DNA of 64,000 nucleotides from an uncultured Gemmatimonadales bacterium (GCA_963812755.1 CAWEWK010000010.1:107872-171871); one strand, 5' to 3'; positions 6,281 through 48,989 are shown, counted from the first letter of the stretch. Numbers and translations are program-made. Notes: generated from the letters alone by a model not told the origin.

Positions 6281-6304
6281 GATGCGGGTGAGTGGGGATG
6301 AAGG

Positions 6305-7174
6305 CTATGCCAAAAAACTCTCCAGCGCCCGGGCCCGGCTCACATGCCGTAAGCGGCTCAGCGCCTTCTCCTTGATTTGGCGGACGCGCTCGCGGGTAAT
6401 CCCGAGGAGGCTACCGATCTCCTCCAGAGTCATCGGCTCTGGGCCGTCGAGGCCGAAATAGAGCCGGAGAATCTTGGCCTCCCGCTCTTTGAGGGTGGAG
6501 AGGACTTCCTCGATCGACTCGGTGAGTGCGTGCTCGAAGGTCTCGGAGTCGGGGCCGGGGTTCTGGGTGTCGGGGAGATAATCGAGAAGCTTGTTGTCCT
6601 CGCCCGGAGTGAGAGGGGCATCGAGCGAGAGGTGGTTCTGCGAGATAGAGAGGGTCTTCTGTACCTCTTCCATCGAGATGTCCATGCCCTCGGCGATCTC
6701 GGACGGAGTGGGCTCGCGGCCCAGCTCCTGGAGGAGGGCCGATGAGCGCTTGCCGATGCGATGGAGCGTGCCGGCCCGATTGAGCGGCACCCGCACGATG
6801 CGGCTCTGCTCCGCCAGCGCCTGCAGGATGGCCTGACGGATCCACCATACGGCATAGGAAATGAACTTGATGCCCTTGGTCTCGTCGAACTTATGGGCCG
6901 CCCGAATGAGACCGAGGTTGCCTTCGTTGATCAGATCCGCGAGCGAGACGCCCTGGTTCTGGTACTTCTTGGCAACCGATACGACGAAGCGCAGGTTGCT
7001 CCGAACCAGTTTGTCCAAGGCCTCACCATCGCCCGTGCGGATGCGCTGGGCGAGGTTCACTTCTTCTTCCTGAGGGATCAGAGGATACTTGCTGATCTCT
7101 CGGAGATATTGGTCCAACGAACCTTCATCGAACGAAGGCCCGCGCTTGCCCGAACCAACCTGCATTGGACGCAT
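6305..7174 (-). CDS. RNA polymerase sigma factor, RpoD/SigA family (short form lacking region 1.1)
   Basis: Regions 2-4 present: NLRFVVSVAKKY, DLINEGNLGLIRAAHKFD, YAVWWIRQAI, and C-terminal LEEIGSLLGITRERVRQIKEKAL. Confidence 0.9.
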   Translation of the reverse strand: MRPMQVGSGKRGPSFDEGSLDQYLREISKYPLIPQEEEVNLAQRIRTGDGEALDKLVRSNLRFVVSVAKKYQNQGVSLADLINEGNLGLIRAAHKFDETKGIKFISYAVWWIRQAILQALAEQSRIVRVPLNRAGTLHRIGKRSSALLQELGREPTPSEIAEGMDISMEEVQKTLSISQNHLSLDAPLTPGEDNKLLDYLPDTQNPGPDSETFEHALTESIEEVLSTLKEREAKILRLYFGLDGPEPMTLEEIGSLLGITRERVRQIKEKALSRLRHVSRARALESFLA

Positions 7175-7261
7175 GCGATTCGACCTCGAAGAACCTGCGA
7201 TAACGGAAGGAATGCTTCACGAACCTTACTCGCCGGGAATGCGGAGCGCAATTGGTAACTT

Positions 7262-7346
7262 GGCTATCGGCTATCGGCTATCAGCTATCAGCTTACTGAA
7301 GTGACCCCCGTCACACTTTCCAGCTGATAGCTGATAGCCGGTAGCC
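7262..7346. repeat. heptad-repeat hairpin element, copy 1
   Basis: Left arm GGCTATC GGCTATC GGCTATC AGCTATC AGCT. 28-nt loop containing GTGAC-CCCC-GTCAC. Right arm AGCT GATAGCT GATAGCC GGTAGCC. Ends 3 nt from the ALDH stop codon. Confidence 0.9.
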
Positions 7347-7348
7347 TT

Positions 7349-8839
7349 CTACACGTCGTACGTATCAATCTGCGCCCGCTGGAGCCTGCCCGAGTAATCG
7401 ACGTAGCACACCTTCGTCTCGGAATAGAACTCGTAGACTTCCCAGCCGCCCTCGCGGTGCCCGTTCCCCGTCGCCTTGACGCCGCCGAAGGGAAGATGAG
7501 CCTCGGCACCGATGGTCGGGGCGTTGACGTAGGTGATGCCGTTGTCCAGCTCCTGCAGTGCACGGAAGGCGAGATCCACGTCCCCGGTGTAGATGGAGCT
7601 GGAGAGCCCGTAGCGCACGTCGTTGTTGACCTTCACCGCCTCATCGAAGGAGCCGACTCGTACCACGCTCAGCACCGGGCCGAAAATTTCTTCCTGCTCC
7701 AGCCGGCTGCCGGGCCGGACCCCGCTAAAGACGGTCGGGCGATAGAACCAACCGCTGCCGAGCCGCCCGCCGGGAACCTTGCCTCCGGTCACCAGCTCGG
7801 CGCCCTCCTCTTTCCCGATCTCCACGTAACGCTCGACCTTCTCCCGTGCCGCCTCGTGAATCAGCGGCCCCACGTCGGTCTTCGCCGTGCGGCCGTCGCC
7901 CAGCCGGAGCCCCTCGGCCGCATCCGCGAGTCGCCGGAGGAACCGATCGTGCACCTTGCGATGCAGGATCAGACGGCTGGTGGCAGTGCAGCGTTGGCCA
8001 GTGGTTCCGAAGGCGCCCCAGAGCACGCCCTCGAGTGCCAGGTCGAGATCGGCATCGTCCATGACGATCATCGCGTTCTTGCCACCCATCTCCAGCGAGA
8101 GCCGCTTGTGCATCCGGCCGCAGGTTTCCCCGATGATGGCGCCGGTCTCGGTCGAGCCGGTGAACGAGATGACCGGGACCTCGGGATGTTCCACCAACGC
8201 CTTCCCCACCGTCTCTCCCCGACCATGGACCAGTTGCACCACTTCGGGTGGGAGCCCGGCTTCGAGGAGAATCTCCACCAGAAGGTGGACCGTGTGGGGC
8301 ACGTCCTCCGACGGCTTGATGATCACCGAGTTCCCGCAGAGCAAGGCGGGAAACATTTTCCAGGTCGGAATCGCCATAGGAAAGTTGAATGGGGTGATCA
8401 ACCCGACCACGCCGATCGGCCGCCGGTAGCTCATCGCCCACTTGGAGCGCAGCTCCGAGGGAACCACCTGGCCGAACAACCTGCGCCCCTCGGTGGCGGC
8501 GTAGTAGGCGGTGTCGATCCCCTCCTGCACGTCACCTCGAGTCTCGGCCAGGACCTTGCCCATTTCGCGAGTCATGGCGTCGGCGATGGTTTCCTTCCGC
8601 TCCACCAGCAGATCACCGACCCGGCGCAGCACGTCACCCCGCGCCGGAGCCGGCGTGCGTGACCAGAGCGCGAAGCCCCGCTTGGCCGACCGCACCGCGG
8701 CGTCGACGTCGCGCCGGTCGGAGTCGGGAAACCGGCCGATGAGGTCCCCGGTATCCGCCGGGTTCCGGTTCTCGAAGTGGGCACCGGTCGCCGGGGCGAC
8801 CCATTTGCCGCCCACTAAGTTCTTGAAAGTCTTGGCCAT
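7349..8839 (-). CDS. NAD(P)-dependent aldehyde dehydrogenase family protein
   Basis: 496 aa. Motifs FTGSTETG, LEMGGKNA and EEIFGPV. Catalytic Cys context GQRCTA. Confidence 0.9.
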   Translation of the reverse strand: MAKTFKNLVGGKWVAPATGAHFENRNPADTGDLIGRFPDSDRRDVDAAVRSAKRGFALWSRTPAPARGDVLRRVGDLLVERKETIADAMTREMGKVLAETRGDVQEGIDTAYYAATEGRRLFGQVVPSELRSKWAMSYRRPIGVVGLITPFNFPMAIPTWKMFPALLCGNSVIIKPSEDVPHTVHLLVEILLEAGLPPEVVQLVHGRGETVGKALVEHPEVPVISFTGSTETGAIIGETCGRMHKRLSLEMGGKNAMIVMDDADLDLALEGVLWGAFGTTGQRCTATSRLILHRKVHDRFLRRLADAAEGLRLGDGRTAKTDVGPLIHEAAREKVERYVEIGKEEGAELVTGGKVPGGRLGSGWFYRPTVFSGVRPGSRLEQEEIFGPVLSVVRVGSFDEAVKVNNDVRYGLSSSIYTGDVDLAFRALQELDNGITYVNAPTIGAEAHLPFGGVKATGNGHREGGWEVYEFYSETKVCYVDYSGRLQRAQIDTYDV

Positions 8840-12694: not shown

Positions 12695-12740
12695 AGCGCA
12701 GTAACGTAAAATGGTGAGAAGTGAGAAGTAAGAACTCGGT

Positions 12741-22540: not shown

Positions 22541-23239
22541 ATGAAGGAGATGAGCCCGGGGTCGGTGCGCGAGCGCCTACTGGAGCGACCGACCATCCTG
22601 GTGCCGGTAGGCACCACCGAACAGCACGGCCCCCATTTGCCGCTCGGCTGCGACACGATCGTGGTGGAGCGACTGGCTGACGACCTGTCGATCAGGTTCG
22701 GAATCTTGCGGGCCCCAACCGTCGAATACGGAGTACACACCCAATCCCGCCCCTTTCCGGGAGGAGCCGCGCTGCGCCGGAGGACGTTACACCGTTTCAT
22801 GAACGAACTTATCGAATCGTGGGAGGACGGGGCAGGCGTTCAGGAATTCATGGTCCTCACGGCTCAAGGGAGCGAGGCTCACCTCGAGGCCCTGAGCACG
22901 ATCCGGACCGAGACTGCCACGGTACAGGTAGTTGACATCTTCAGCCTCGATTTCGGGGAGCTACTCGACCGACCGGGTGCACCGGTACAAGGCGGCGAGT
23001 TGGACACCTCACTCATGCTTTTCATTGCGCCGGAGGTGGTGCGAATGGACCTGGCTCAGGATTTTGCGCCCACTCCCCAGGCCCTGGCGAGGTATCGGCC
23101 GGGCCACAGTCGCCGGCTGCCCACCGGCTCGCCCGGATCGATCGGTTATCCCAGTCTGGCCTCCGCCCAAAAGGGTGAGCGCCTGTATACATTCATTCTC
23201 GACCGGGTCAGCATGTGCCTGGACCGGACCCGAGGTTGA
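22541..23239 (+). CDS. creatininase (creatinine amidohydrolase) family protein
   Basis: MKEMSPGSVRERLLERPTILVPVGTTEQHGPHLPLGCD is the family N-terminal signature. The track ORF start (22208) overlaps the kinase gene, so ATG 22541 is used. Confidence 0.8.
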   Translation: MKEMSPGSVRERLLERPTILVPVGTTEQHGPHLPLGCDTIVVERLADDLSIRFGILRAPTVEYGVHTQSRPFPGGAALRRRTLHRFMNELIESWEDGAGVQEFMVLTAQGSEAHLEALSTIRTETATVQVVDIFSLDFGELLDRPGAPVQGGELDTSLMLFIAPEVVRMDLAQDFAPTPQALARYRPGHSRRLPTGSPGSIGYPSLASAQKGERLYTFILDRVSMCLDRTRG

Positions 23240-23250
23240 GCGGAGCCCAC

Positions 23251-23895
23251 ATGCGCGCCCTCGCGCTTCTACTTCCAGTAGGGATGCTTCAGGGGGTCTC
23301 GGCAGCGGCCCAGCAGGCGCTGGAGACCAAGCTTGTCGTCCAACAGAGCGGCCGGGAAACAGGCCGGGAGGAATTCACCCTCCGCCGGGCGGGTGGAGGC
23401 CCAGGCACATCGCTGCTGGCCTCCGCCCGCTATCCAGCCGTCTCGCCGACGACCCATCTCAGCGGCTCGCTCGAGCTCACCCCCGAATTTGCCATCGCGA
23501 AGTTTCAGCTGGACGTGGAGAGTCCCGCCGGTACCACGGTCATCCTTGCCGCCGGATCGGGTGCCCGGCTCATTGTCCGCACCGTGGCCAAGGGCTCCGA
23601 GTCCGGTCGCGAGCTGCCGGGTGGACCGGACGTCGTCCTGCTGGACGAGGGCGTTCATTCGCTGTTCGCCGTCGTCGCCTTGCTGTCGACTCCGGCCGGA
23701 CGTCCCCTCACCGCCATCTACCCTCGCACCGGCAAACGAGCTTCGTTCGTCGCCAAGCGGGAGGGAGGCGAGGGCGGCAACATCAGGGTCGCTCTGAGCG
23801 GCGACATCGGCGGGACGCTGCTCACCGACGGCGAGGGACGGCTCCAGCGATTGGAGCTGCCCGGCCAGGGCATTGTGGTAACACGAGCGGAGTAG
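23251..23895 (+). CDS. hypothetical secreted protein
   Basis: ATG 23251. Signal peptide MRALALLLPVGMLQGVSAAAQ. GC3-rich. No family recognised. Confidence 0.5.
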   Translation: MRALALLLPVGMLQGVSAAAQQALETKLVVQQSGRETGREEFTLRRAGGGPGTSLLASARYPAVSPTTHLSGSLELTPEFAIAKFQLDVESPAGTTVILAAGSGARLIVRTVAKGSESGRELPGGPDVVLLDEGVHSLFAVVALLSTPAGRPLTAIYPRTGKRASFVAKREGGEGGNIRVALSGDIGGTLLTDGEGRLQRLELPGQGIVVTRAE

Positions 23896-24017
23896 TCTCC
23901 CCACCCCAAGTCCTTTGCTATCAGTCTCGAAGGCGGCCTTTGTCGCAACCTGAAACCTGGGCGGCGGTGCAGCCGTATTGGCGCCGGTCACGTCCCACAC
24001 TACAAAGGGCTCGATCA

Positions 24018-25586
24018 ATGAAACTGTGGTTGGGAGTCTTCGTCCTCACCTGCCTTGCTCCCCTGACAGGCGAGGCACAGGACACGACAACGGTCCAACG
24101 GCCTGACACGACCGTTCGCCCGGATACGAACGTGGCGGCTCGTCCCGCTGCAACGGCGACGCTATCGCTGGCGGAGGCGCTCAAGCAGGCACAGGCCAAC
24201 AGCCCGGCGTATCGCCAGACGTTGAACGACGCCGGACCGGCCAAGTGGGGCGTGCGAAACGCCTACGCCAACTTTCTCCCTTCAGTGAACGCCTCGGGCG
24301 ACCTGGGCTATACCGGGTCGGGCGAATCCAACTTCGGTGGCGGGTTCGTTCGCCCAACCTCAGCGTTCATGACCTCAGGGTACAGCCTCGGGCTCCAGTG
24401 GCAGCTGGACGGTCGAGTCTTGTCGGGCCCGGGACAGCAGAAGGCGCTCCAGCGCGCCACCGACGAAGACATTTCGGGAGCCGACATCGCGCTGCGTGCG
24501 GAAATCTCCACCCAATACCTCAATGCTCTCCAAGCTGCGGCCCAGGTGGACGTGGCTCGGCAGCAAGTGGTGCGCAATGCCGACTTCCTTACCCTGGCCA
24601 AGGCCCGATACCAGGTAGGCCAGGCCACCTTGCTGGACGTGCGCCAGGCGGAGGTCGCGAAGGGCCAGTCCGACGTGGCACTGCTCCGAGCGGTTCAGAC
24701 CGACAACGAGGCGAAGCTGGACCTGCTCCGCCGAATGGGGGTCGAGCCCCCGGTCGCGGTCGAGCAGATCGCGCTCACCGACTCCTTCCCCGTTGCCGCA
24801 CCCGAGTTTCAGCTGCAGGAGCTGTTGTCGATGGCCGATCAGAAGAATCCGAACCTTCGCTCGCTGCGCGCACGCCAAGACGCCGCCACCTGGGGTGTGC
24901 GGGCCGCGAAGTCGGAATTCCTCCCCACGCTGTCGCTGCAAGCCGGATGGAGCGGCTTTACCCAGGAATTCACCAACGACCAGTTGTTGCTGGATCAGAC
25001 TCTGGGCGAGGCGCAGGCACAGGTGGCCGATTGTCAGTACAACAACTCGGTGCGCTCGGCGCTCTCGCTGGGTGGAGAGACGCCTGACTGTAACGGCTCG
25101 GCCGGACTTGACCCCACCGGCAATGCGCTGCTCGACCCGGTAGCCCAGCAGATTCGCAACGACAATGACGTCTTTCCTTTTCATTATACGGGGCAGCCGT
25201 TCCAGGCCAACCTCAGACTCTCGCTGCCGATCTTCACCAACTTCGGTCGCTCGCTCCGACTGTCTCAAGCCCGGGCCCAGGAGCAGGATGCCGACGAGGA
25301 CGTGCGGGCCCGCCGGCTCCAGGTGCGGAGCGATGTGCACGCCCGGTATCTCGGCCTCCAGACGTCTTACCAGGCGATCCCGGTGCAGGCCGCGAACCGG
25401 GAGGCGGCGCGAGACCAGCTCCGGCTGGCGCAGGATCGCTACCGGTTGGGCGCCGGCACCTCGCTCGAAGTGTCCGACGCGCAGAATTCAGTGCAGCAAG
25501 CCGAGGGTGACTACGTGAATGCAGTGTACGACTACCACAAGGCGATCGCCGCGCTGGAAGCCGCGGTGGGTCGCACTCTTCGCTAA
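24018..25586 (+). CDS. TolC family outer-membrane efflux protein
   Basis: Signal peptide MKLWLGVFVLTCLAPLTGEAQ. Two TolC repeats (LSLAEALKQAQANSPAY.., YLNALQAAAQVDVARQQV, YDYHKAIAALEAAVG). The upstream part of the 884-aa track ORF overlaps two other genes. Confidence 0.85.
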   Translation: MKLWLGVFVLTCLAPLTGEAQDTTTVQRPDTTVRPDTNVAARPAATATLSLAEALKQAQANSPAYRQTLNDAGPAKWGVRNAYANFLPSVNASGDLGYTGSGESNFGGGFVRPTSAFMTSGYSLGLQWQLDGRVLSGPGQQKALQRATDEDISGADIALRAEISTQYLNALQAAAQVDVARQQVVRNADFLTLAKARYQVGQATLLDVRQAEVAKGQSDVALLRAVQTDNEAKLDLLRRMGVEPPVAVEQIALTDSFPVAAPEFQLQELLSMADQKNPNLRSLRARQDAATWGVRAAKSEFLPTLSLQAGWSGFTQEFTNDQLLLDQTLGEAQAQVADCQYNNSVRSALSLGGETPDCNGSAGLDPTGNALLDPVAQQIRNDNDVFPFHYTGQPFQANLRLSLPIFTNFGRSLRLSQARAQEQDADEDVRARRLQVRSDVHARYLGLQTSYQAIPVQAANREAARDQLRLAQDRYRLGAGTSLEVSDAQNSVQQAEGDYVNAVYDYHKAIAALEAAVGRTLR

Positions 25587-25598
25587 CAAGGAACCAAC

Positions 25599-26882
25599 AT
25601 GTCGCGTGGGATGAAGATCGGGCTGGGTATCCTGGTGGTAGCGCTCGCGGCCGGCGGCTTCATCGCCTACCGGATCGACCAGAAGAAGAAGGCGGGCACC
25701 GAGGTCCGTATGGAACGGGTGTCCCGGCGCGACCTGGTAAGCGCGGTCACTGCCAGCGGGAAGATCGAGGCCAAGACCAAGGTTGACATCAGCGCCGATA
25801 TCACCGGACGGATCATCAAGATCGCGGTGCGCGAGGGCGACCGGGTCACCAAGGGACAGTTTCTGATCCAGATCGACCCAGCGGAATACCAGGCAGCGGT
25901 CACCCGAGCGGAGGCGGTGGTGGCCAGCACCCAAGCGACGCTGGCCCAGAGCCGGGCGAACCGGGACCAGGCGGAACGTGCCTGGGGTCGTGCCCGTCAG
26001 CTCACCAACCTCGGGCCCAACCTGATCGCCAGGGAAACGGCGGAGCAGGCGCAGACTGCGTACGAGGTGGCCGAGGCGACGTTCCAGTCGACCCAGGCCC
26101 AGTTGAACGAGTCTCGCGCCAGTCTGCAGGCGGCGCGGGACAATCTCTCGAAGACCCGGCTGGTCTCCCCTATCAGCGGCCGCGTGGTCCGGCTGGCCGT
26201 GGAGGAGGGCGAGGTCGCCGTGCCCGGCACCTTTTCTCGGGAAACCGGTTTGCTCATGACGGTAGCCGATCTCTCGGTGATTCTCGCCAAGGTGCAAGTA
26301 GACGAAACCGACGTGGTTCGCCTGGCGATGAGCGACTCGGTCGAAGTGACGGTGGACGCGTATCCCGACACCACCTTTCTGGGCCGGGTAACCGAGGTGA
26401 GTCACAGCGCCAAGCTCACGCCCACGGAGACGGCCTCCGGGTCTACCGACCGGGCGGTGGACTTCGACGTGGAGATCACGCTGAAGAATCCGCCGCAGGA
26501 CATCCGGCCCGACCTGAGCTGTACCGCCAGGATCGTGACCGATACCCGAGATCACGTGCTCAGTGTTCCGATCATCGCGCTCACGGTGCGTGACCACGAG
26601 CGCATCGCCGTGGAAACGGAGGAGCCGGCGCCGATGATCGACACCACTCGCCGCCGGCCGCGGAACAAGGAAGCGGAGGGAGTGTTCATCGTGAGCGACA
26701 ACGTCGCAAGCTTCCGGCCGGTCAAGGTCGGCATCGCCGGCGACGAGTTCTTCGAGGTGACGGAAGGAGTGCGCGAAGGAGAGACCATCGTCGCCGGCAC
26801 CTATCAGGCGATCCGCGACTTGAAGGACGGGGACCGGGTCAGCCCGGCGGATACCACCAAGCAGGAAACGGCGGAGTCATGA
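25599..26882 (+). CDS. efflux periplasmic adaptor subunit (HlyD/MacA family)
   Basis: N-terminal TM. Lipoyl/hairpin motifs [36 protein letters not shown] and coiled coil. SPISGRVV motif. ATGA overlap with the next gene. Confidence 0.85.
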
Positions 26883-27595
26883 GCGCCATCATCCGAATTC
26901 GGGAGCTGAGCCGGGAGTACCGGATGGGCGACGAGCGCATTCTCGCTCTCCGGGACGTGACGCTGGACATCGGCCGCAACGAGTATATGGCCATCATGGG
27001 ACCGTCGGGGTCGGGCAAGTCTACCATGATGAATCTGCTGGGCTGTCTCGATACGCCGACCGGGGGCGAGTACTGGCTCAACGGCCAGGAGGTGTCTCGG
27101 CTCAGCGACGACGAGCTGGCCAGGGTCCGCAACCGGGAAATCGGCTTCGTGTTCCAAACCTTCAATCTGCTCCCCCGGGCCACCGCCCTGCACAACGTCG
27201 AGCTGCCGCTGGTCTACTCCGGCACGCGGGGGCGGGAGCGGCGGGAGCGGGCCGTCGAGGCGCTGGAGCGGGTGGGCCTGGGCCACCGTATGGACCACCG
27301 GCCCAACGAGCTGTCGGGCGGCCAGCGCCAACGGGTGGCGATCGCTCGTGCCCTGGTCAACCGGCCCAGCATCCTGCTGGCCGACGAGCCTACCGGCAAC
27401 CTCGACAGCGTGACCAGCGAAGAGATCATGGGTGTGTTCGCGGATCTCCATGCCGCCGGCCAGACGGTGATCATGGTGACCCACGAGGCCGACATCGCCC
27501 GCCACGCCCAACGAGTCGTTGTTTTGCGCGATGGTCGGGTGGAGAGTGATACGAAGCAAGCGCTATCGGCTATCGGCTATCCGCTATCGGCTTGA
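26879..27595 (+). CDS. ABC transporter ATP-binding protein (MacB/LolD type)
   Basis: Walker [11 protein letters not shown]-loop. Signature [15 protein letters not shown]. Walker [13 protein letters not shown]. The last ~11 codons ([11 protein letters not shown]) are read from heptad-repeat copy 2. Confidence 0.9.
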
Positions 27596-27599
27596 TAGC
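27562..27599. repeat. heptad-repeat element, copy 2 (short, intra-operon)
   Basis: GCTATCG GCTATCG GCTATCC GCTATCG GCT then inverted TGATAGC. Lies between the ATPase core and the ATG (27600) of the first permease. Confidence 0.8.
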
Positions 27600-28841
27600 A
27601 TGCCCCTGCTCGAAGCCATCCGTCTCGCCCTCCGCACCATCCGGGCGCAGAAGCTCAAGAGCTTCTTCTCGCTCATCGGGGTGCTGATCGGGGTCACCTT
27701 CCTCATCGCGGTCGTCTCCATCGTGCAGGGGATGAACCGCTACATGGTCGACCGCTTCGCCAACACCCTGGTCGGCGCCAATACCTTCGAGCTGCGGCAG
27801 CGACTGAACATCGTGACCGGCAACGTGCCGGACGACGTGTGGCTGGCTTGGCGGCGCCGGCCGCGCATCACCTACGCCGACGCCGACTACGTGCGCGAGC
27901 GGATCAGGACGCCCGCCGTCTTCGCAAAGTTCTGCGAGGACCGGGTGTCGGTATACCACAACGGGAAGGTCGCCAAGGACATCAACCTGGTCGGCAGCGA
28001 GGAGAGCTACTTCCGGATCCGCAACTACGAGCTGACCGCGGGGAGGGCCTTCACCGCCCAGGAAGTCCGCACCGGGCTGCCGGTGGTGGTGGTGGGCAAC
28101 GAGCTGGCGCGGAAGCTGTTGCCGGGGGTGGACCCCATGGGCAAGGTGGTGCAGATCGGCGGGCTGCCCTATCGCATCATCGGCGTGGTCGCGGAGCAAG
28201 GGACCTTGTTCGGGCTCTCGCTCGACAAGTTCGCGGTCATGCCGTTCAGCGCTCCTGGACGGCGGCTCATCTGTCCCATCAACATCCTGGACGCCCTGAT
28301 CGTGCAGACTTCCGACCCCACCCAGATGCAGCAGGCCATGGGAGAGGCGGAGGCGATCATGCGCAGCCGCCGGCAACTCAAGCCATGGCAAGAGAACAAT
28401 TTCGCCTTTCAGACCGCGGAAGGCGCGCTGGGCACATGGCAGAAGATCTCCCGAATTCTGTTTCTCGCCCTCCCCGGTCTGGTCGCGATTTCTCTAGTGG
28501 TGGGCGGGATCGTGATCATGAACATCATGCTCATGGCGGTCAGCGAGCGCACCCGCGAGATCGGCATCCGCAAGGCCCTGGGAGCCCGGCGGCGCGATAT
28601 CCTGGCGCAGTTCGTGGTGGAGTCCGCCACTCTTTCCGCCGCCGGGGCCGTTCTAGGTATCGGATTCGGGATCGTGCTGGCATTCGTGGTGAAGGCGTTG
28701 ACCCCGCTGCCCGCGTCGGTGGCCCCCTGGTCGGTGACGCTGGGGGTGGTCCTGGGCGTGACGGTCGGGATCATCGCCGGCGTGTACCCGGCGAGTCGGG
28801 CGTCACGCTTGGACCCGATCGTGGCGTTGAGGGCTGAATGA
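27600..28841 (+). CDS. ABC transporter permease, FtsX/MacB type (paralog class A, copy 1)
   Basis: MPLLEAIRLALRTIRAQKLKSFFS. Large periplasmic domain. C-terminal FtsX TMs with VVGGIVIMNIMLMAVSERTREIGIRKALGA and LDPIVALRAE. Confidence 0.9.
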   Translation: MPLLEAIRLALRTIRAQKLKSFFSLIGVLIGVTFLIAVVSIVQGMNRYMVDRFANTLVGANTFELRQRLNIVTGNVPDDVWLAWRRRPRITYADADYVRERIRTPAVFAKFCEDRVSVYHNGKVAKDINLVGSEESYFRIRNYELTAGRAFTAQEVRTGLPVVVVGNELARKLLPGVDPMGKVVQIGGLPYRIIGVVAEQGTLFGLSLDKFAVMPFSAPGRRLICPINILDALIVQTSDPTQMQQAMGEAEAIMRSRRQLKPWQENNFAFQTAEGALGTWQKISRILFLALPGLVAISLVVGGIVIMNIMLMAVSERTREIGIRKALGARRRDILAQFVVESATLSAAGAVLGIGFGIVLAFVVKALTPLPASVAPWSVTLGVVLGVTVGIIAGVYPASRASRLDPIVALRAE

Positions 28842-30100
28842 GCGCTTTGCGTCCCCTCGCCGCGCTGTCCCGCATGCTGGAAGGCGCCGCGATCGCCATC
28901 GATTCCCTGCGGTCCAATAAGGTTCGCGCCACGCTGACCATTCTCGGCGTCGCGATCGGAGTGACGGTGGTGATCGCGATGGGCTCGGCCATCACCGGGA
29001 TCAACCGGAGCATCACCGCCATCCTGGAATCGGCCGGCCCCAAGACGTTTTATGTCTTCCGCTACTTCTCGGGCGGTCTGGAGGTGTCCGATGGCTCCGA
29101 CGAGCTGTCACCCTGGCGAAGGATGCCGGAGCTCACCGTGGACGAGGCCGAGCTGATCCGAGCCTTGCCGGGCGTCCGGGAGGTGAACATCGGCGAGTAT
29201 GCCTCGGGTCCGGTGAGCTCCGGCGACGTGAGCCTCCACAGCGTGGACGTGGCCGGGTTCAGTCCCACCTGGCCCCAGGTGAACGGCGGCGAAATCCTGG
29301 CCGGCCGCAACTTTACCCCGGTGGAGTACGCCGCCGGCGCTCGGGTGGCCGTGATCAACGACAAGCTGGCGGAGTCGCTCTTTCCCGGGCTGGACCCGGT
29401 TGGAAAGCGGATCAAGGTCTTCGGACAGCCGTTCGACGTGGTCGGGATGCACGCGGAAGCCGCGTCCCTGTTCGGCAACGCCGACGAGCCGCGGCTGGCG
29501 ATACCGCACACCACGTTCACCAAGGTGGCGGACTACTGGCGGGGGTGGCTGGAGATCGCGGTCGTGCCCACCGAGTCGGCGACCGTGGCGAAGGCGCAGG
29601 ACGAGGTAACGGCGGCCCTTCGCAGCAAGCGAGGGCTGCATCCCGCGGAGGAGAACAACTTTGCCCTGGTGACCCAGGACCGGGTGCTCGACGCGTTCAA
29701 CCAGGTGACCGCCGGATTCTTCGTCGCCATGATCGCCCTCTCCAGCGTGGGCTTGATGGTCGGCGGCGTCGGGGTGGTGGCCATCATGATGATCTCGGTC
29801 ACCGAGCGGACCCGGGAGATCGGGGTCCGCAAGGCGCTGGGTGCCACGCGAGGTGAGATCATGTTTCAGTTCCTGGTCGAAGCGGCCACCCTCACGTTGG
29901 TCGGCTGCCTCATCGGGATGGCCGTCGGCGCGCTCATCGCCTGGGCTATCCGGTCCTTCTCGCCGATTCCGGCGGCGGTGCCCCTGGCCTCGGTGATCGC
30001 GGCCGTGGTGGCGTCGATTTTGACGGGCGTGCTCTTTGGTCTCTATCCAGCGAGCAAGGCATCGAGGCTGGACCCGGTAGAGGCGCTGCGGTACGAGTAG
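28838..30100 (+). CDS. ABC transporter permease, FtsX/MacB type (paralog class B, copy 1)
   Basis: AGPKTFYVFRYF. ALSSVGLMVGGVGVVAIMMISVTERTREIGVRKALGATRGEIMFQFLVEAATLTL. LDPVEALRYE. ATGA overlap with the preceding gene. Confidence 0.9.
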   Translation: MSALRPLAALSRMLEGAAIAIDSLRSNKVRATLTILGVAIGVTVVIAMGSAITGINRSITAILESAGPKTFYVFRYFSGGLEVSDGSDELSPWRRMPELTVDEAELIRALPGVREVNIGEYASGPVSSGDVSLHSVDVAGFSPTWPQVNGGEILAGRNFTPVEYAAGARVAVINDKLAESLFPGLDPVGKRIKVFGQPFDVVGMHAEAASLFGNADEPRLAIPHTTFTKVADYWRGWLEIAVVPTESATVAKAQDEVTAALRSKRGLHPAEENNFALVTQDRVLDAFNQVTAGFFVAMIALSSVGLMVGGVGVVAIMMISVTERTREIGVRKALGATRGEIMFQFLVEAATLTLVGCLIGMAVGALIAWAIRSFSPIPAAVPLASVIAAVVASILTGVLFGLYPASKASRLDPVEALRYE

Positions 30101-30148
30101 TCTCCCTCCACTGCGGCGGGAGCGCTAATCCGGCTACATTATCCTCCC

Positions 30149-31393
30149 ATGCCGCTCTCCGAGGCCCTACGCCTGGCAATCCAGGCCATCTGGTCCAGCA
30201 AGCTCCGCTCCTTCTTCACTCTGCTCGGCATCATCGTCAGCGTCGCCTTTCTGGTCATGGTGGTGGCCATCATCCAGGGCATGAACGCCTACGTCCGGGA
30301 GAACATCACCGGCGCGCTGATCGGCACCAACGCCTTTCAGGTGCGGCGCACGCCGATCAACGTGGGCCTGATGGACGACGCCGAGGTGCGGGCCATCAAC
30401 AAACGGCCGCTCATCACGGTCCGGGACGCCGAGGTGGTTCAGCGGGCAGTGCCCGACGCGCAGGCGGTGTCGCTGCAGTCGGGATGGCCGACCCCGGTCA
30501 GCACGGTCAGCTTCCGCAACCGGCTGGTAGAGAACGTGGTCGTTTTCGGGGTCACCCCGCCCTACCAGGTGGTGCAGGACTACCGCTTCGCCGTGGGGGA
30601 GCCGCTCGCCGACCCGGACGTGCGCGAGCGACGCGCGGTCGTGATTCTGGGCTACGACGTCGCCGATCGACTGTTCGATGACCCGGCGATGGCGGTCGGA
30701 CACAAGGTTCGTGTCGCCGGGAGCGAAGTCCAGGTAAAGGGGGTGATCGCCAAGAAGGGTCGGGTCCTGGGCCAATCCTTCGACACCTTCGTGCTGCTGC
30801 CGTTCAGCACCTTCGAGTCGATGTACGGCCGGCGGAAGACCACGGTGGTTTCGGTGAAGATGGGGAATGCTGAGGCGATCGACGGCGCCATGGCGAGGGC
30901 GGAGGAGGCCATGCGGCTGGCCCACCGGCTTCGACCGGGCGAGCCGAACGACTTCACGGTGGACAAGGCGAGCGCCCTGGTGTCCTTCTGGCGGAACCTC
31001 ACCCGCATCCTCTTTACCGCCATTCCCGCCGTGGTCTGCATCGGGATCGTCGTGGGTGGCATCGTGATCATGAACATCATGCTCATGACGGTGAACGAAC
31101 GGGTGCACGAGATCGGGATTCGGAAGTCGGTAGGAGCAACCCGGCGGGACATTCGCCGGCAGTTCCTGGTGGAGGCGGTCGCGCTCGCGTCCTTGGGCGG
31201 AGTCGTCGGGGTACTGGTGGGCTGGGGCGCTGCGACGTTGGTGGCGACGGTGAGTCCCTTGCCTGCACGAGTGACGCTGTGGTCGGTGGGGATTGCGATG
31301 GCGCTGGGTGCCGGCGCCGGAGTGTTGTTCGGGGTATACCCGGCCACCCGGGCGGCGCGGTTGGACCCGATCAACGCGCTCCGGGCGGAGTAG
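30149..31393 (+). CDS. ABC transporter permease, FtsX/MacB type (paralog class A, copy 2)
   Basis: MPLSEALRLAIQAIWSSKLRSFFT. VVGGIVIMNIMLMTVNERVHEIGIRKSVGA. LDPINALRAE. Closest in motif content to 27600-28841. Confidence 0.9.
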   Translation: MPLSEALRLAIQAIWSSKLRSFFTLLGIIVSVAFLVMVVAIIQGMNAYVRENITGALIGTNAFQVRRTPINVGLMDDAEVRAINKRPLITVRDAEVVQRAVPDAQAVSLQSGWPTPVSTVSFRNRLVENVVVFGVTPPYQVVQDYRFAVGEPLADPDVRERRAVVILGYDVADRLFDDPAMAVGHKVRVAGSEVQVKGVIAKKGRVLGQSFDTFVLLPFSTFESMYGRRKTTVVSVKMGNAEAIDGAMARAEEAMRLAHRLRPGEPNDFTVDKASALVSFWRNLTRILFTAIPAVVCIGIVVGGIVIMNIMLMTVNERVHEIGIRKSVGATRRDIRRQFLVEAVALASLGGVVGVLVGWGAATLVATVSPLPARVTLWSVGIAMALGAGAGVLFGVYPATRAARLDPINALRAE

Positions 31394-31401
31394 GAGCACC
31401 G

Positions 31402-32646
31402 GTGCGGCTCCACGTTCCCAATCTGCTGGAAGGAATCCTGATCGCCCTCGGCGCCATGCGCGCCAATAAGCTGCGCTCGGCCCTCACCGTCCTCGGCGTG
31501 GTGATCGGAGTGGCCACGGTAATGACGGTGGCCTCCATGGTGCAGGGCATCCGGACCCAATTGTTCAACGCCATCGAGGTGGCCGGACCGCAGGTCTTCT
31601 ACATCCTCCGCTTCTTCACCCAAACCCCTCTGGATCCTGACCGGCTGCCTTACGAGCTGCGCATCAGGCCGATCCTGTCGGCCACTGACGCGAGAGCGGT
31701 GCGGACTGTGCCCGAGATCGCCTACGCCCAACTCTGGCTGCAGATCTTCGCCCGGCTGGAGGTGGCCGGGATCAGAACCCAGACGATGATCGTTTACGCC
31801 GGCGACGACCAGTTCATGGAGATCCTGGGCGGCACGCTGCTCCGGGGCCGGCTCTTCACCCGGGCGGAGCTGACCGGAGAGAACGTGATCGTGCTCGAAG
31901 AGCAAGCGGCCGACCGCCTGTTCGGCCAACTGGATCCCATCGGCCAAGTCGTCCGAGCCAACGGCCAGCCGCTGCGAGTCATCGGCATCTATCAGAAGCC
32001 GGCCAACATCTTCGAACCTCCGGGCCAGCAGAACGCCGGCGCCATTCCCTTCCTGACCGCCCGGGAGAAGTTTCGCTATAACGAGACTTACGACCTCTTC
32101 ATCGCCGCCAAGGCCAAGGCCGGCGTTCCGATCCCTCTGGCCAAGGACGCGGTTACGGCAGCGCTCCGGCGAACTCGCAATCTCCGGCCCGAGACTCCCA
32201 ATACCTTCGACCTGGTCACCCAGGACCAGATCCTCGACGTCCTGGGGAGGTTCACCAACTACTTCTTCCTGGCCATGGTCGCGCTGTCCAGCGTGGCTCT
32301 CATGGTGGGCGGCATCGGCGTCATGGCAATCATGATGGTTTCGGTGACCGATCGCACCCGGGAGATCGGGCTCCGCAAGGCGATCGGCGCCACCCGAGGC
32401 GAAATTCTCTGGCAGTTCCTGGTCGAAGCGGCGACGCTGACCCTGTTGGGAGGACTGCTGGGTATCGCGGTGGGACTGGTGGCGGGCGAGGCGCTCAAGT
32501 ATGCGATGTCGATCGACTCCGCAGTTCCCCTCTGGAGTGCCCTGCTCGCTTGCGGGGTCAGCATCGGGATCGGGCTGCTTTTCGGGCTCTACCCGGCCAA
32601 CCGCGCGGCCCGGATGGACCCGGTGGAGGCGTTGAGGCACGAGTAA
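31402..32646 (+). CDS. ABC transporter permease, FtsX/MacB type (paralog class B, copy 2)
   Basis: GTG 31402 (VRLHVPNLLEGILIALGAMRANKLRS). AGPQVFYILRFF. ALSSVALMVGGIGVMAIMMVSVTDRTREIGLRKAIGATRGEILWQFLVEAATLTL. Closest to 28838-30100. Confidence 0.85.
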   Translation: MRLHVPNLLEGILIALGAMRANKLRSALTVLGVVIGVATVMTVASMVQGIRTQLFNAIEVAGPQVFYILRFFTQTPLDPDRLPYELRIRPILSATDARAVRTVPEIAYAQLWLQIFARLEVAGIRTQTMIVYAGDDQFMEILGGTLLRGRLFTRAELTGENVIVLEEQAADRLFGQLDPIGQVVRANGQPLRVIGIYQKPANIFEPPGQQNAGAIPFLTAREKFRYNETYDLFIAAKAKAGVPIPLAKDAVTAALRRTRNLRPETPNTFDLVTQDQILDVLGRFTNYFFLAMVALSSVALMVGGIGVMAIMMVSVTDRTREIGLRKAIGATRGEILWQFLVEAATLTLLGGLLGIAVGLVAGEALKYAMSIDSAVPLWSALLACGVSIGIGLLFGLYPANRAARMDPVEALRHE

Positions 32647-32650
32647 GAGA

Positions 32651-32739
32651 GGCTATCGGCTATCAGCTATCGGCTTCGGACTGCTAAAAGGTCATGAGCC
32701 GATAGCTGATAGCGCCATAGCCGATAGCTGTCCATAGCC
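32651..32739. repeat. heptad-repeat hairpin element, copy 3
   Basis: Left arm GGCTATC GGCTATC AGCTATC GGC. About 22-nt loop. Right arm GCCGATAGCTGATAGC followed by extra GCCATAGCC GATAGCT GTCCATAGCC units. Confidence 0.9.
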
Positions 32740-33696: not shown

Positions 33697-34413
33697 ATGG
33701 CCATCGAGATCCTCGCCATCGCCGCCCATCGAGACGACGTCGAGCTCACCTGCGCTGGGACCCTGCTCAAGGCGGGCGATGCCGGGCATCGGACCGCGAT
33801 TCTCGATTTGACCGCGGGCGAGTCGGGAAGCCGGGGGAGCGCCGAGCTCCGCGCGGAGGAGGCGGCTAGGGCCGCGAAGATTCTGGGCGTCGTCGAGCGG
33901 CGCAATGCCGGATTCCCCGACGCGCACATCCAGAACAACGACGACACTCGGCGGACGTTGGTAGAACACATCCGCCACTTCGCGCCTCGAGTGGTGATCC
34001 TGCCTTTTCCGGTAGGACGGCACCCGGACCACCGGCTGACCGCGGAGCTCGGCCGCGACGCCTGCTATCTCTCGGGGCTCGCCAAGTATCCCGCGCCAGG
34101 CGCCCCTCACCGGCCTCACAAGATTCTCTACGCGCTGTCCTATCGCGAAGACCCACTCAAGCCGACGTTCGTGGTGGATATCAGCGCGCAATTCGACCGC
34201 AAGTTGGCAGCGATCCGCTGCTATGCCAGCCAGTTCGACGGCGCCACTGCGGCGGGCGAGATCTTTCCCACCGGCCAGGACCTCTACTCCCTGGTCGAAA
34301 CCCAGAACGCCCACTACGGCTCCCTGATCCGGACCCGGTACGGCGAGCCCTTCTACACCCACGAGACCATGGCAGTGGACGATGTCGTGGGGTTGGGGGT
34401 GCAGAGTATGTGA
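33697..34413 (+). CDS. bshB1: PIG-L/LmbE family deacetylase, BshB1-like
   Basis: ILAIAAHRDDVELTCAGTLLK, DLTAGESGSRGSAELRAEEA and HPDH motifs, collinear with bacillithiol deacetylase BshB1 as I recall it. Confidence 0.7.
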   Translation: MAIEILAIAAHRDDVELTCAGTLLKAGDAGHRTAILDLTAGESGSRGSAELRAEEAARAAKILGVVERRNAGFPDAHIQNNDDTRRTLVEHIRHFAPRVVILPFPVGRHPDHRLTAELGRDACYLSGLAKYPAPGAPHRPHKILYALSYREDPLKPTFVVDISAQFDRKLAAIRCYASQFDGATAAGEIFPTGQDLYSLVETQNAHYGSLIRTRYGEPFYTHETMAVDDVVGLGVQSM

Positions 34414-34418
34414 AGGGA

Positions 34419-34534
34419 AGCTATCAGCTATCGGCTATCGGCTACCCGCTACTTGCACGGATCGCTGGCACCTGGTTTGGGGACCGAAGCCCGATCTCTA
34501 GTTGCGGATAGCCGATAGCTGATAGCCGATAGCT
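34419..34534. repeat. heptad-repeat hairpin element, copy 4 (largest)
   Basis: Left arm AGCTATC AGCTATC GGCTATC GGCTACC CGC. 54-nt loop. Right arm GCG GATAGCC GATAGCT GATAGCC GATAGCT. 31-nt arms with 2 mismatches at the R positions plus one T/C substitution. Confidence 0.9.
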
Positions 34535-42937: not shown

Positions 42938-44198
42938 TCATCCATCGGCCAGCCGGCGGTTGAGTAGGAAAAGCGCGGCTTGTGCGGCTCGGGCCCGGAT
43001 CTCCTGCCGGGAGCCGGGGAAGACGCTACGCCGCCCCAAACTGCCGGCTGCGTCGGCAACAGCGATCCAGACGGTGCCCACCGGCTTCTCGGGACTGCCT
43101 CCGCCCGGCCCGGCGATTCCAGTGACCGCCACCGCGAGGTCGGCGCCGAGTCGCTCCCGGACACCCTGCGCCATAGCCTGCACCACCGGCTCGCTGACGG
43201 CCCCATGCTCAGCAATCAGCGCTGCCGGCACCCCGAGCAGCTCAGTCTTGAGCTTGTTGGAATAGCAGATCACGCCGCCTTCGAATACGTCGGAGCTTCC
43301 GGGGACCTCGGTGAGCCGGCCCCCCACCAAGCCGCCGGTACACGATTCGGCGACGCCGAGTCGCAGGTTGCGCTCGCGCGCGCGTTGCAGCACGAGGGCG
43401 GCGAGGTCGGTTTCATCTTCGCCGTAGGCGTGCTCGCCGGCCCGCTGGCACAGCAAGCGCGCACCAGCGACGAGCCGTGCGTCGGCTTCGGCCGGCCCGA
43501 GACCCCAGGCGCTGAGGCGCAGATCGACTCCCTCGAGTCCAGGCAAGTACGCCAGCGTCAGTGGGGCGATCTCCTGCTCGATGTCTGCCCATGCGCTCGG
43601 CCAACGTGGACTCCGGAATGCCGGTGGTACGCACCAGCCGGGAACGGATGACGGTTTTCCCGCCCTGGTCGGTCAGCCGAGGGATCACCTCGTGCTCCAG
43701 CAGCTTCCGCATCTCGGAAGGAACACCCGGCAACATGATGACCAGCCCTCGTCTGCCGTCCAACACGGGGAGTGGCGCGTCGAGCCACAGTCCCGGCGCC
43801 GTGCCCCACCGATTGCGGAGCACGGTCGCTCCCCGGGGCACCTCCGCCTGGCTGCGATTGCTGGTCGCCGGGGTTCGTTGCATCCGAGCGAAGCGGGCCA
43901 GCAGATCGGCCCACACCGACTCGTCGAAATCGAGCGGTGCGTCGAACAGCTGGGCCACGACTCTCTTGGTGATGTCGTCCCGGGTCGGGCCCAGGCCGCC
44001 GGTGGTGAGTACGGCTCCAGTGCGGCGCAGCCCGGCCAGGACCGCGTCGGTGATCTCGGGGGCCCGATCGGGAACTGCGGTGCGGCGGACCACCTCGACG
44101 CCCTGGGCCCCCAACGCGCGGGCGATCTCCGCTCCGTTGCTGTCGAGGGTGAACCCGAGCAGCAGCTCGGTGCCGATGGTGACGAGCTCGAGGTTCAT
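42938..44198 (-). pseudogene. cinA: competence/damage-inducible protein CinA (MoCF domain + PncC-type NMN amidohydrolase), frame broken by an apparent 1-nt insertion near 43583-43590
   Basis: The N-terminal frame reads MNLELVTIGTELLLG...TTGGLGPTRDDIT...GIPESTLAERMG. The +1 frame continues DIEQEIAPLTLAYLPGLEGVDLRLSAWG...LGVAESCTGGLVGGRLT. Span is 1261 nt = 3n+1. Confidence 0.85.
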
Positions 44199-44202
44199 GA
44201 GT

Positions 44203-44230
44203 AGCTATGGAGCTATGGGCTGTGGCCATT
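44203..44230. repeat. possible degenerate half-copy of the heptad element
   Basis: AGCTATGG AGCTATGG GCTGTGG CCAT in the 35-nt gap between the cinA start and the pgsA stop. No inverted partner seen. Confidence 0.35.
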
Positions 44231-44233: not shown

Positions 44234-44872
44234 TCACCGCAACCGATCCGAGAACAGGTGCCGATTGTGATAGAGATAGAGCACGAAGGAGTAGACCGTG
44301 AGCAGGGTTGCCACCGCGAGGGCGACGGCCACGAATCCGCCGTGGAACTCGTTCCAGTACTCGGCGTACCGGCTGTTCTCCCATCCCATCGGCTTGCGCG
44401 CGTCGCGAAAGGCGAACCACAGAATCACCGCACCGATGAAGATGTTCTGGATCGTGGTCTTGAGCTTCCCCGCCCCGCCGGCCGGTATCACCACACCCCG
44501 GCGGCTGGCCCACCACCGGAACCCGGTCATGGCCAGCTCCCGCCCGATCAGCAGGATGCACACCCAGAGCGGGATGCTGCCCCAGATGGGGATGTCGTAG
44601 AGATCGTGGCGCCAGCGGGAGATGAAGTAGATGGGAATCAGGGTCGCGAACAGCAGCAGCTTGTCCGCGATCGGATCCAGCATCTTGCCGAGATCGGTAA
44701 CCTGATTGCGGGTGCGGGCGAGGTGACCGTCGTACACGTCGCTGATCGCCGCCGCGAGGAAAATGAGAAAGGCGATCAGCTTGGGCCAGTATCCCTCGAT
44801 AAACGGCAGCAGTGCGATGACCGGGGTGAAGCAGATCCGGACCAGGGTGATGATGTTGGGGAGGGTCCACAT
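44234..44872 (-). CDS. pgsA: CDP-alcohol phosphatidyltransferase (PgsA-like)
   Basis: LPNIITLVRI. Signature DVYDGHLARTRNQVTDLGKMLDPIADK (D-G-x2-A-R...D-x3-D). Multi-TM, 212 aa. Confidence 0.85.
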   Translation of the reverse strand: MWTLPNIITLVRICFTPVIALLPFIEGYWPKLIAFLIFLAAAISDVYDGHLARTRNQVTDLGKMLDPIADKLLLFATLIPIYFISRWRHDLYDIPIWGSIPLWVCILLIGRELAMTGFRWWASRRGVVIPAGGAGKLKTTIQNIFIGAVILWFAFRDARKPMGWENSRYAEYWNEFHGGFVAVALAVATLLTVYSFVLYLYHNRHLFSDRLR

Positions 44873-44881: not shown

Positions 44882-45556
44882 CTACCCCAGCGTCTTGACG
44901 ACGGTCTTGCTGATGGCCTTGAGAGTGTCGAACACCCCTTCGCCGGTGAGCGCCACCGCCTCGAAGTACGGCGCCCGTTCCACCCACTGGCCGTCCTGCT
45001 GGGCCGTGAGAAACTCCGACTCGTGATAGGGATCCGGTACCGTGCGCTGCTTCGCCGGATCCTCCACCGGCCATCCCGGGTTGAGCGACTGCTGCAACTC
45101 GGCGATCGGCGCCGCATTGGGGAGATCGCGCTTGTTGTATTGGATGGCGAAGGGAATCTTGGTCAGGTCGTAGCCGTGCTGGGCCATGTTCTCGTAGAGA
45201 TTCTGCATCGCCTCGATGTTGGCGTCCATCCGCTCGATCTGGCTGTCGGCCACGAAGACGACGCCGTCGACGCCCTTGAGGATGAGCTTGCGCGAGGCGT
45301 TGTAGTACACCTGGCCCGGGACGGTGTACAGGTGGAACTTCACCTTGAAGCCGCGGATGGTGCCCAGGTCCACCGGCAGAAAGTCGAAGAACAGGGTGCG
45401 CTCGGTTTCAGTGGCCAGGGAGATCATCTTGCCCCGGGCCCCCGGCGCCACCTTGTTGTAGACGAACTCCAGGTTGGTGGTCTTCCCACCCAGGCCCGGT
45501 CCGTAGTACACCAGCTTGCAGTTGATCTCGCGCGAGGCGTAGTTGATCATCGACAT
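44882..45556 (-). CDS. mglA: Ras-like GTPase MglA (with internal insertion)
   Basis: [51 protein letters not shown] and [10 protein letters not shown] are near-identical to canonical MglA motifs. 224 aa versus the roughly 195 expected. Confidence 0.9.
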
Positions 45557-45570
45557 GCGATGGCGTCCCC

Positions 45571-46059
45571 TCAGGCCCCAAAGAGTTTGTCGATCTCGTC
45601 TTCCGCCTCGCCCAGAAACTCCGACTCCACCGGCTGGCGAGTGCCGTCCCGCGCGAACATGTCGGTGAACACCTGGTTGAGCTGTCCCACCGCACCCTTG
45701 ACCCTCAGCTTGACCAGGCCGAGCGTGGTCCGGTTGTCGAACAACACCACCAGGATGACCCGCCGGGCAACATCGGCCAGGTACATCGACTCCCGCTCTC
45801 CTTGATGAAAGAGCGCGCCGAACTCGGCCTCGCCCAGCATGCGGGCCAACTGGTCGTTGGCGCTGAAGTCGGCCGCGGTGAGGGAGGCGAAGGCGGTGGC
45901 ATCGAACGCGGGCGCCTCTCCGACCGTCGCGACCATCTGACCGGTGCGATCCACGATCAGCGCGGTTCGGGCGTTGGATTCGCCCAGGAAGCTACTGAGA
46001 ATCGCCTGGATCCGACGGGAATCCTCCTCCCTGAAGGACCAGCTCGAGGCACCGCTCAT
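45571..46059 (-). CDS. mglB: Roadblock/LC7 domain protein MglB (MglA GAP)
   Basis: Roadblock fold signature [15 protein letters not shown]...[10 protein letters not shown]. Immediately upstream of mglA on the same strand. Confidence 0.8.
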
Positions 46060-47241: not shown

Positions 47242-47274
47242 GCTGAGGCCAAAGTATTTGTGAGGAGGCGACTT

Positions 47275-47345: not shown

Positions 47346-48989
<1,644 letters not shown>

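Follow-up and report, generated by a model that had tools for sequence, protein, structure and literature searches.

Why should a hairpin assembled from tandem heptanucleotides lie directly behind a stop codon, and what kind of element is it? The question is raised by positions 7262 to 7346 (minus strand) of a 64-kb stretch of DNA from an uncultured Gemmatimonadales bacterium; this whole stretch is referred to here as the window. The left arm of the element (7262-7293) consists of three GGCTATC units, AGCTATC and AGCT, while the right arm (7322-7346) consists of AGCT, GATAGCT, GATAGCC and GGTAGCC. Between them lies a centre of 28 nt (7294-7321) containing an inner hairpin, GTGAC/CCCC/GTCAC, at 7301-7314. 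A reading of the sequence bore out the original prediction of four units facing three around this inner hairpin.

We find good support for the conclusion that the element, termed element 1, belongs to a lineage-amplified family of hairpin-forming heptanucleotide microsatellites of a soil Gemmatimonadales bacterium. It is similarly well supported that each locus comprises two inverted runs, usually of two to five RGCTATS units each, arranged around a locus-specific centre. The DnaX protein encoded in the window has hundreds of close relatives, those carrying names being labelled Gemmatimonadales, and near-identical words to the window DNA were found in soil metagenomes only. The G+C content of the window is 62-70% in 2-kb steps and mostly near 66%.

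Heptad elements of the window

Five further copies are present. Element 3 (32651-32739, plus strand) has three units facing 2+2 inverted units; element 4 (34419-34534, plus strand) has arms of four to five units around a centre of approximately 54 nt that is itself partly paired; and element 5 (47275-47343, minus strand) is a GCTATG variant. Element 2 (27561-27599, plus strand) is degenerate, with CGCTATC, GGCTATC, GGCTATC and CGCTATC in direct orientation followed by GGCT and one inverted TGATAGC. Finally, a half-site at 44203-44224 (minus strand) is a one-armed remnant that reads AGCTATG, G, AGCTATG, GGCTGTG on the plus strand. The two-unit pattern RGCTATSRGCTATS, allowing up to one mismatch, matched the window 21 times against an expectation of 0.11, and no more than one match was obtained in any of 100 shuffles of the window. 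Tandem Repeats Finder reported period-7 arrays of 2.4 to 5.1 copies at these loci, and nine of the 11 period-7 arrays in the window were of the RGCTATS type. The same elements furnish the longest inverted repeats of the window, with element 4 the longest (I1) and element 1 listed as I3/I5.

RNA folds of the elements were predicted in the orientation of the flanking genes, and z-scores were calculated against shuffled sequences. Elements 1, 3, 4 and 5 gave predicted energies of -54.2 kcal/mol (z = -8.5), -53.0 kcal/mol (z = -6.1), -72.3 kcal/mol (z = -6.9) and -38.6 kcal/mol (z = -5.2), respectively. Element 2 (z = -1.0) and the half-site (z = +0.8) folded no better than their shuffles. Thus, all of the copies originally predicted exist, but only four are strong hairpins: the expectation that heptads face inverted heptads at each copy is correct for these four loci, whereas element 2 pairs four direct units with a single inverted one and the half-site has one arm. 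The paired form accordingly represents four of the six window copies. Shifting one arm by 7 nt altered the energy of element 1 from -54.2 to -50.2 kcal/mol and that of element 5 from -38.6 to -34.3 kcal/mol. Since the shift costs only around 4 kcal/mol in these two elements, the suggestion that the stem can pair in several 7-nt registers holds.

Position behind gene ends

Window genes were called by third-position G+C (GC3) and their domains were assigned with Pfam. Upstream of element 1 lies an aldehyde dehydrogenase (ALDH) gene (7349-8839, minus strand; Pfam Aldedh, E = 2.6e-168) whose TAG stop occupies 7349-7351; the adjacency had been predicted correctly, although the gap is 2 nt rather than 3 nt. 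A sigma-70 family gene (6305-7174, minus strand; Pfam Sigma70 r1_2, r2, r3 and r4) follows downstream. Element 3 separates a MacB/FtsX permease gene (31279-32646, TAA stop) from a DUF4349 gene starting at 32794, and element 4 separates a PIG-L family gene (33697-34413, TGA stop) from a class-V aminotransferase gene starting at 34559. Element 5 lies between the dnaX TGA stop (47346-47348) and the ybaB start at 47241, and the half-site between the stop of a CDP-alcohol phosphatidyltransferase gene (44234-44236) and the CinA start (44196-44198). Element 2 is overlapped by an ABC ATPase ORF (26879-27595, Pfam ABC_tran) and is followed by a MacB/FtsX gene (Pfam MacB_PCD/FtsX) with its ATG at 27600. 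As anticipated, every copy (6/6) is located between co-directional genes; these are housekeeping genes, and the copy is in each case very near or overlapping the upstream stop.

The four hairpins (elements 1, 3, 4 and 5) begin 2, 4, 5 and 2 nt after the upstream stop and end 87, 54, 24 and 33 nt before the next start. By arithmetic from these coordinates, the stop proximity of the four has a chance probability of approximately 5e-5 under uniform placement within each spacer. Four of the roughly 12 intergenic gaps of 100-320 nt in the window consist mostly of an RGCTATS element.

To extend this analysis, 133 hairpins among the matches listed were taken from the window, from genomes and from metagenomes, where a pattern scan of contigs yielded at least 120 further hairpin loci. 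The figures for distance to the stop depend on a crude ORF caller using GC3 and on the matches listed. A long, codon-biased ORF ended within -45 to +150 nt of the hairpin boundary in 91 of these 133 hairpins, and in 72 of the 91 scorable cases among the matches listed the stop was no more than 10 nt away, most often 0-5 nt. For those hairpins that could be oriented by the stop, the median distances among the matches listed were 2 nt to the stop and 24 nt to the next start. Ten cases were found among the matches listed in which a pair of convergent genes ends at the stem base, one on each side. The same placement extends to RNA genes, with elements beginning 7 nt after the 3' end of a tRNA-Leu (L165) and 7 nt after that of a tRNA-Trp inside a tRNA cluster (L146), and a further copy resides within a ribosomal-protein operon in the order rplP-rpmC-[element]-rpsQ (L186). 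The element thus usually starts 0-5 nt behind the end of the upstream gene. This is the strongest regularity of the family and was absent from the original prediction.

The idea that the element itself supplies the stop codon was rejected. TAG was used at 45% of junctions against a background of 34% (p = 0.02), and overlapped the first unit in approximately ten cases among the matches listed; the dnaX stop, moreover, is ancestral. It occupies the identical position in six orthologous loci that are devoid of the element, from which it follows that the element was inserted behind an existing stop.

The ABC ATPase ORF at 26879-27595 reads through the array of element 2, acquiring a repeat-encoded C-terminal tail and a stop 4 nt before the next ATG. 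Here, insertion of the element probably displaced the original stop. The ORF forms part of an efflux-type row (22932-32646) comprising an OEP outer-membrane factor, an HlyD-like adaptor, the ABC ATPase and tandem MacB/FtsX-type permease genes, of which Pfam confirmed two, the intervening two being assigned from ORF size only. Heptad elements are situated at two junctions of this row.

If the hairpin were selected as RNA, a difference between the strands might be anticipated. No significant difference was observed between sense and antisense folding energies (n = 66, p = 0.22), and G-U pairs numbered 128 on the sense and 106 on the antisense strand, likewise not significantly different. Arm size displayed no polarity relative to the upstream gene, the mean unit number being equal in both arms. 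RNA-strand selection was consequently rejected as a candidate: given this symmetry, nothing points specifically to selection on RNA rather than on DNA.

Orthologous loci and change in place

The part of the window from approximately 34.5 to 57 kb is syntenic with seven other Gemmatimonadales contigs. In one of these (L121, DnaX 88% identical) the dnaX-ybaB hairpin is present but differs in both units and centre, and the phosphatidyltransferase/CinA spacer holds a full 4+4 hairpin where the window retains one arm. The remaining six (L122, L123, L124, L245, L246 and L247) possess neither element. Their DnaX proteins are approximately 73-78% identical to that of the window over full length, with L245 88% identical over 68% of the query. 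In these six relatives the dnaX-ybaB spacers are short and no replacement structure is evident there.

Across the metagenome loci, centres were common only to orthologous loci among the matches listed; otherwise, only the degenerate heptads recur. This agrees with the prediction of a real repeat family having conserved arms and unrelated centres. Orthologous pairs with flanks 79-92% identical carried elements 83-94% identical that differed by unit-sized indels, and between L151 and L166 the gaps were of 5 and 8 nt, roughly one unit. The predicted variation in unit number between relatives was therefore observed, as in the window against L121 and in L151 against L166. Shuffling the order of units within one arm produced less stable structures, the real order being more stable by a mean of 1.5 kcal/mol (-1.5) and favoured by 59 elements against 39 (p = 0.001). 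Variants on the two arms are thus mirrored more often than expected by chance.

These comparisons show lineage-specific gain, persistence, whole-unit change and decay to half-sites. No sign of the copying of whole elements from place to place was detected among the loci compared, and the uniqueness of the centres likewise indicates that whole elements are not copied. It is therefore well supported that no master element was copied to give these loci, which have only their arms in common. Equally well supported are the conclusions that whole units are gained and lost within the arms in situ, the behaviour expected of replication slippage, and that arm variants tend to stay complementary, the hairpin behaving as an evolving unit.

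Assembler words from the left-arm array (window 7210-7300) were 10-15 times as deep as those from the flanks in four soil metagenome runs (X1-X4), and one run contained eleven contigs in which the array follows unrelated upstream sequence. The array thus has a high copy number in these soil communities, and for this reason the reading of unit number from soil contigs aligned to the window is ambiguous.

Several features of the syntenic region were observed alongside the elements. The gene row dnaX-ybaB-recR-(89 aa)-Roadblock/LC7-Arf-like GTPase-phosphatidyltransferase-cinA-grpE-dnaJ is common to all eight Gemmatimonadales loci, and the Roadblock/LC7 and Arf-like GTPase genes (window 44882-46059 and syntenic loci) constitute an MglB/MglA-like pair. 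All eight loci (window 47242-47274; L121-L124 and L245-L247) have an invariant TACTTTG motif 7-8 nt before the ybaB ATG, with TTGCMC a further 17-19 nt upstream in five loci without the element. Together, the motifs resemble a promoter from which ybaB would be transcribed with no leader or almost none. At the -35 position, with a spacing of 17-18 nt, the window and L121 have the last unit of the element and its flank (TAGCCA). Directly upstream of dnaX lies a bacterial small SRP RNA gene (49039-49136, minus strand; 43.6 bits against an Rfam gathering score of 40), an arrangement conserved in L121.

Relation to described repeats and possible roles

A full-text literature search for tandem RGCTATS unit strings returned only unrelated primer sequences and none in a bacterial context. 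An Rfam scan, which had been proposed as a check, identified SRP RNA only across the whole window at gathering score, and the regions of elements 1, 3 and 4 produced nothing beyond matches, far short of threshold, to models of miRNA precursors from eukaryotes; with gathering or E-value thresholds, nothing relevant to the elements emerged. The architecture, by contrast, has been published. Xanthomonas genomes each contain about 185 arrays of the heptamer GGGAATC, with a mode of about four units, and 70-75 of these form closely spaced inverted pairs capable of adopting a stem-loop (Rehm et al. 2015; PMC4692102). Those arrays are approximately 90% intergenic, prefer aligned ORFs and are found very near or overlapping the stop codon; 83% are kept on site between two species with changes in length and preservation of the single or paired type (PMC4692102). 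The RGCTATS elements resemble them in their heterogeneous tandem heptamers, inverted pairs, aligned ORFs, proximity to stops and kept sites with length change. Unlike them, they are borne by a member of the Gemmatimonadota rather than of the Gammaproteobacteria, the paired form is the majority in the window, and the unit has no G-tract or G-rich character, so that the G-quadruplex formation on which that work focused does not apply. The Xanthomonas repeats are, in addition, mostly transcribed (PMC4692102); for the present elements, a search for RNA sequencing runs matching the window DNA listed none. The original assertion that the heptad structure is not a described family is thus correct for the unit in the literature searched and incorrect for the architecture: the family is a further example of a published but unexplained kind of bacterial repeat and not a new class.

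A second comparison concerns the TAACTGA repeats of Beggiatoaceae, Cyanobacteria and Bacteroidetes, which are intergenic, occur in sets of two to six units sometimes split by related heptamers, and in one orientation contain stop codons in all three frames (MacGregor 2015; PMC4679880). The two units are closely related, (TAACTGA)n being the reverse-complement cyclic permutation of (AGTTATC)n and hence one transition from AGCTATC; AGTTATC is itself among the commonest variant units beside the perfect arrays seen here. TAGCTGA, the exact counterpart of the RGCTATS-family unit, had no direct repeats in the genome of that paper (PMC4679880). Both kinds are intergenic, form sets of two to six units, place one unit in several phyla and carry stops in all three frames in one orientation. 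The TAACTGA sets, however, are nearly all direct (one indirect repeat in 170 sets) and end about 1 nt upstream of start codons (PMC4679880), whereas RGCTATS forms inverted pairs just behind stops. Multi-copy elements of four or five tandem heptanucleotides have also been described in Geobacter metallireducens (PMC2700814), and heptanucleotides are the commonest long simple repeats in prokaryotes according to the summary of Mrazek (2007) given in PMC4679880. As far as such repeats and the cyanobacterial STRR are summarised there and in PMC4692102, they share with our elements tandem heptads, a mostly intergenic location and variable length, yet are mainly long direct arrays, their descriptions including neither the regular pairing of inverted runs nor the close placement behind gene ends seen here.

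The suggested likeness to REP/BIME elements proved to be one of context and, probably, of action. REPs have a fixed sequence of 20-40 nt with a conserved head (such as GTAG) and are moved by a cognate RAYT transposase. As with the REP and BIME elements of enterobacteria and the REPINs of pseudomonads, the RGCTATS elements are abundant extragenic palindromes in co-directional or convergent spacers, near stops and with a variable number of modules. Unlike them, they share only the 7-nt unit, their centres are unique and their indels are unit-sized and made in place. In place of a conserved palindrome with a head, variable ends were found, and at the junctions of elements 1 and 3-5 there was no target duplication of the kind expected of MITEs, whose internal sequences would also be related. 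Runs of at least three head-to-tail units beyond chance and whole-unit changes in length, both of which the elements show, are, conversely, the hallmarks of a heptameric simple sequence repeat of the LSSR/STRR type. Taken together, the observations speak against mobility by copy-paste as in REP/RAYT or MITE elements and fit in-situ heptamer microsatellites kept as inverted pairs.

How special is the unit itself? A genome scan for three consecutive units, with one genome per species, returned at least 120 loci from many phyla. Gemmatimonadota contributed approximately 20 of 120 genome loci among the matches listed, and six of ten hairpin-type genome loci among the matches listed, the remainder being from Chloroflexota and one Chitinophagales. 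In viral contigs, arrays of three units were found in 81 stretches for the real unit and in 29, 13 and 35 stretches for three scrambled units of the same composition. Since scrambled units are also frequent, three-unit arrays of any heptamer are common, the real unit being enriched only two- to sixfold globally. The lineage-specific traits are density and the paired form.

The loci that hold RGCTATS also hold 150 arrays of 96 distinct heptads. In L121, a hairpin at 6287-6419 comprises (GTGCTGA/GTGCTAA)x4 facing (CACTCAG/CACTAAG)x6, also given as GTGCTRA facing TYAGCAC; it starts at the TGA stop of a BrkB-like gene, upstream of the SRP RNA, and the same site in the window is without it. As this heptad builds a similar hairpin, the architecture is not tied to one unit. 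A frame RGNNNTS shared by all heptad families (Xanthomonas, TAACTGA, Geobacter and the local arrays) was considered and rejected, as 19 of the 96 other heptads fit it against 17% expected. The window also contains an array of GTGAGAA, GTGAGAA and GTAAGAA at 12714-12734, near an ORF start at 12741, with a stop triplet in each unit.

What, then, might the hairpins do? By analogy with REP elements, which act as mRNA stem-loops, we tentatively favour a stem-loop at the 3' end of the upstream cistron, a reading to which we give somewhat less than an even chance. In E. coli, the stem-loops of REPs make the mRNA upstream of them more resistant to 3' exonucleases, and where a REP lies within approximately 15 nt of a stop codon, ribosomes stall and the gene upstream is expressed less. 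A transcribed RGCTATS element would fold into a stem of approximately 20-35 bp without a U-tract, which could serve as a barrier or processing site, defining and protecting the 3' end of the upstream cistron. The terminating ribosome would cover the first one or two units and may thereby modulate termination or expression of that cistron, while the number and register of units would tune the strength of the stem. The insert would also pair with itself base to base, leaving the stop codon and the signals of the next start spatially close, which would explain its tolerance inside tight operons. Against such a role stand the strand symmetry and the lack of a replacement structure at dnaX-ybaB in relatives devoid of the element. 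Furthermore, because other heptads build the same architecture and scrambled heptads are only two- to sixfold rarer, a generic mutational process could explain much.

The latter consideration leads to the principal rival, that the elements are functionless by-products in which heptamers arise by slippage, become inverted pairs through strand switching and survive only in the free bases behind gene ends. This appears possible yet doubtful, and we judge it less probable than a role at the 3' end. The diversity of unrelated heptamer arrays in the same loci, the occurrence of scrambled control heptads as three-unit arrays (13-35 stretches against 81), the absent sense/antisense asymmetry, the patchy presence among relatives with decay to half-sites and the general prevalence of heptanucleotides among long simple prokaryotic repeats (Mrazek 2007, in the summary of PMC4679880) are all as expected of a neutral process. 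Such a process does not readily account for persistence at about coding-level identity across flank divergence of 8-21%, nor for mirrored variant units beyond chance, for peaks at 0-5 nt from the stop and approximately 24 nt from the next start among the matches listed, for elements abutting both stops between convergent genes, or for the dominance of one unit in the window (9/11 period-7 arrays). Transposase-driven copying to new sites, as by a RAYT acting on REP/REPIN elements or as for a MITE, is very improbable. The palindromic, extragenic and high-copy nature of the elements, the 10-15 fold rise in soil read depth over the array and the differing presence among relatives at one site would be in keeping with mobility, but the centres are unique, whole elements are not copied, and the window copies have no conserved head, distinct terminal inverted repeat or target duplication. 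No transposase domain, RAYT included, was detected in the scanned window ORFs, which is weak evidence as 64 kb is a small part of a several-Mb genome, nor in the Pfam annotation of syntenic loci covering the rest of the window; a few ORFs gave no match.

Two further explanations are each improbable in our estimation. The hairpin may matter in DNA, as a set of sites for a protein reading 7 bp (a nucleoid protein or a gyrase/IHF-type partner) or as a cruciform or replication-pause site. E. coli BIMEs bind gyrase and IHF, stability and arm size here are strand-symmetric, and the unit recurs in several phyla as if a binding protein were shared. However, a candidate protein was not found, no known DNA process places sites 0-5 nt behind stops and 7 nt behind tRNA ends, and the occurrence of a different heptad in the same architecture and lineage argues against one sequence-specific reader. 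Alternatively, the elements might be transcription terminators without a U-tract, bidirectional between convergent genes and acting as attenuators within operons. The strong stems directly behind gene ends would suit this, as would the ten cases among the matches listed that abut the stops of both convergent genes and the promoter-like motif after the dnaX-ybaB element, which could end the dnaX transcript. Set against it, the GC-rich stem with a direct U-run that defines an intrinsic terminator was not seen: a scan of three regions holding elements 1 and 3-5 identified no terminator-like site and no T-run after an element, as is apparent from the element tails (AAGUUACC, UCGUGUGC, UGCAGCCC and AAGUCGCC). 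Moreover, copies are found inside operons that need read-through, namely rpmC-rpsQ, the tRNA cluster and between ABC transporter genes. Prediction of sigma-70 promoters at the elements gave none.

Beyond the preferred reading of a 3'-end stem-loop, we consider it unlikely that the elements are self-templating palindromic microsatellites, whose arms grow in step by fold-back or strand switching and which have been recruited across phyla and units as 3'-end insulators tunable by unit number. If so, slippage would allow the expression of neighbouring cistrons relative to one another to be fine-tuned in a heritable and reversible way, and a dedicated protein or RNase III would possibly read the insulator.

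The Xanthomonas GGGAATC and Beggiatoa TAACTGA repeats are the two best-described cases, each having been treated as a curiosity of one lineage. The RGCTATS family presents a like anatomy in a third, poorly studied and soil-abundant phylum, with a unit one base from TAACTGA and a very sharp position rule behind stops and tRNA ends, even within ribosomal-protein and tRNA operons. This regularity of position suggests that the published heptamer cases are instances of one general phenomenon. There are practical consequences too: the arrays break short-read assemblies and can lead gene callers to add spurious C-terminal extensions, as at 26879-27595, where automated annotation would report the repeat-encoded tail of the ABC ATPase ORF as a real extension.

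Arrays were also observed on two viral-labelled contigs. An IMG/VR contig of 14.8 kb (L295) carries seven arrays in a single orientation, and the 47-kb IMGVR_UViG_3300044798_000503 (L257, L263, L282, L300, L302 and L321) carries at least nine, some of them hairpins. The two contigs represent phages or proviruses whose hosts carry the family, or else chromosomal fragments mislabelled as viral.
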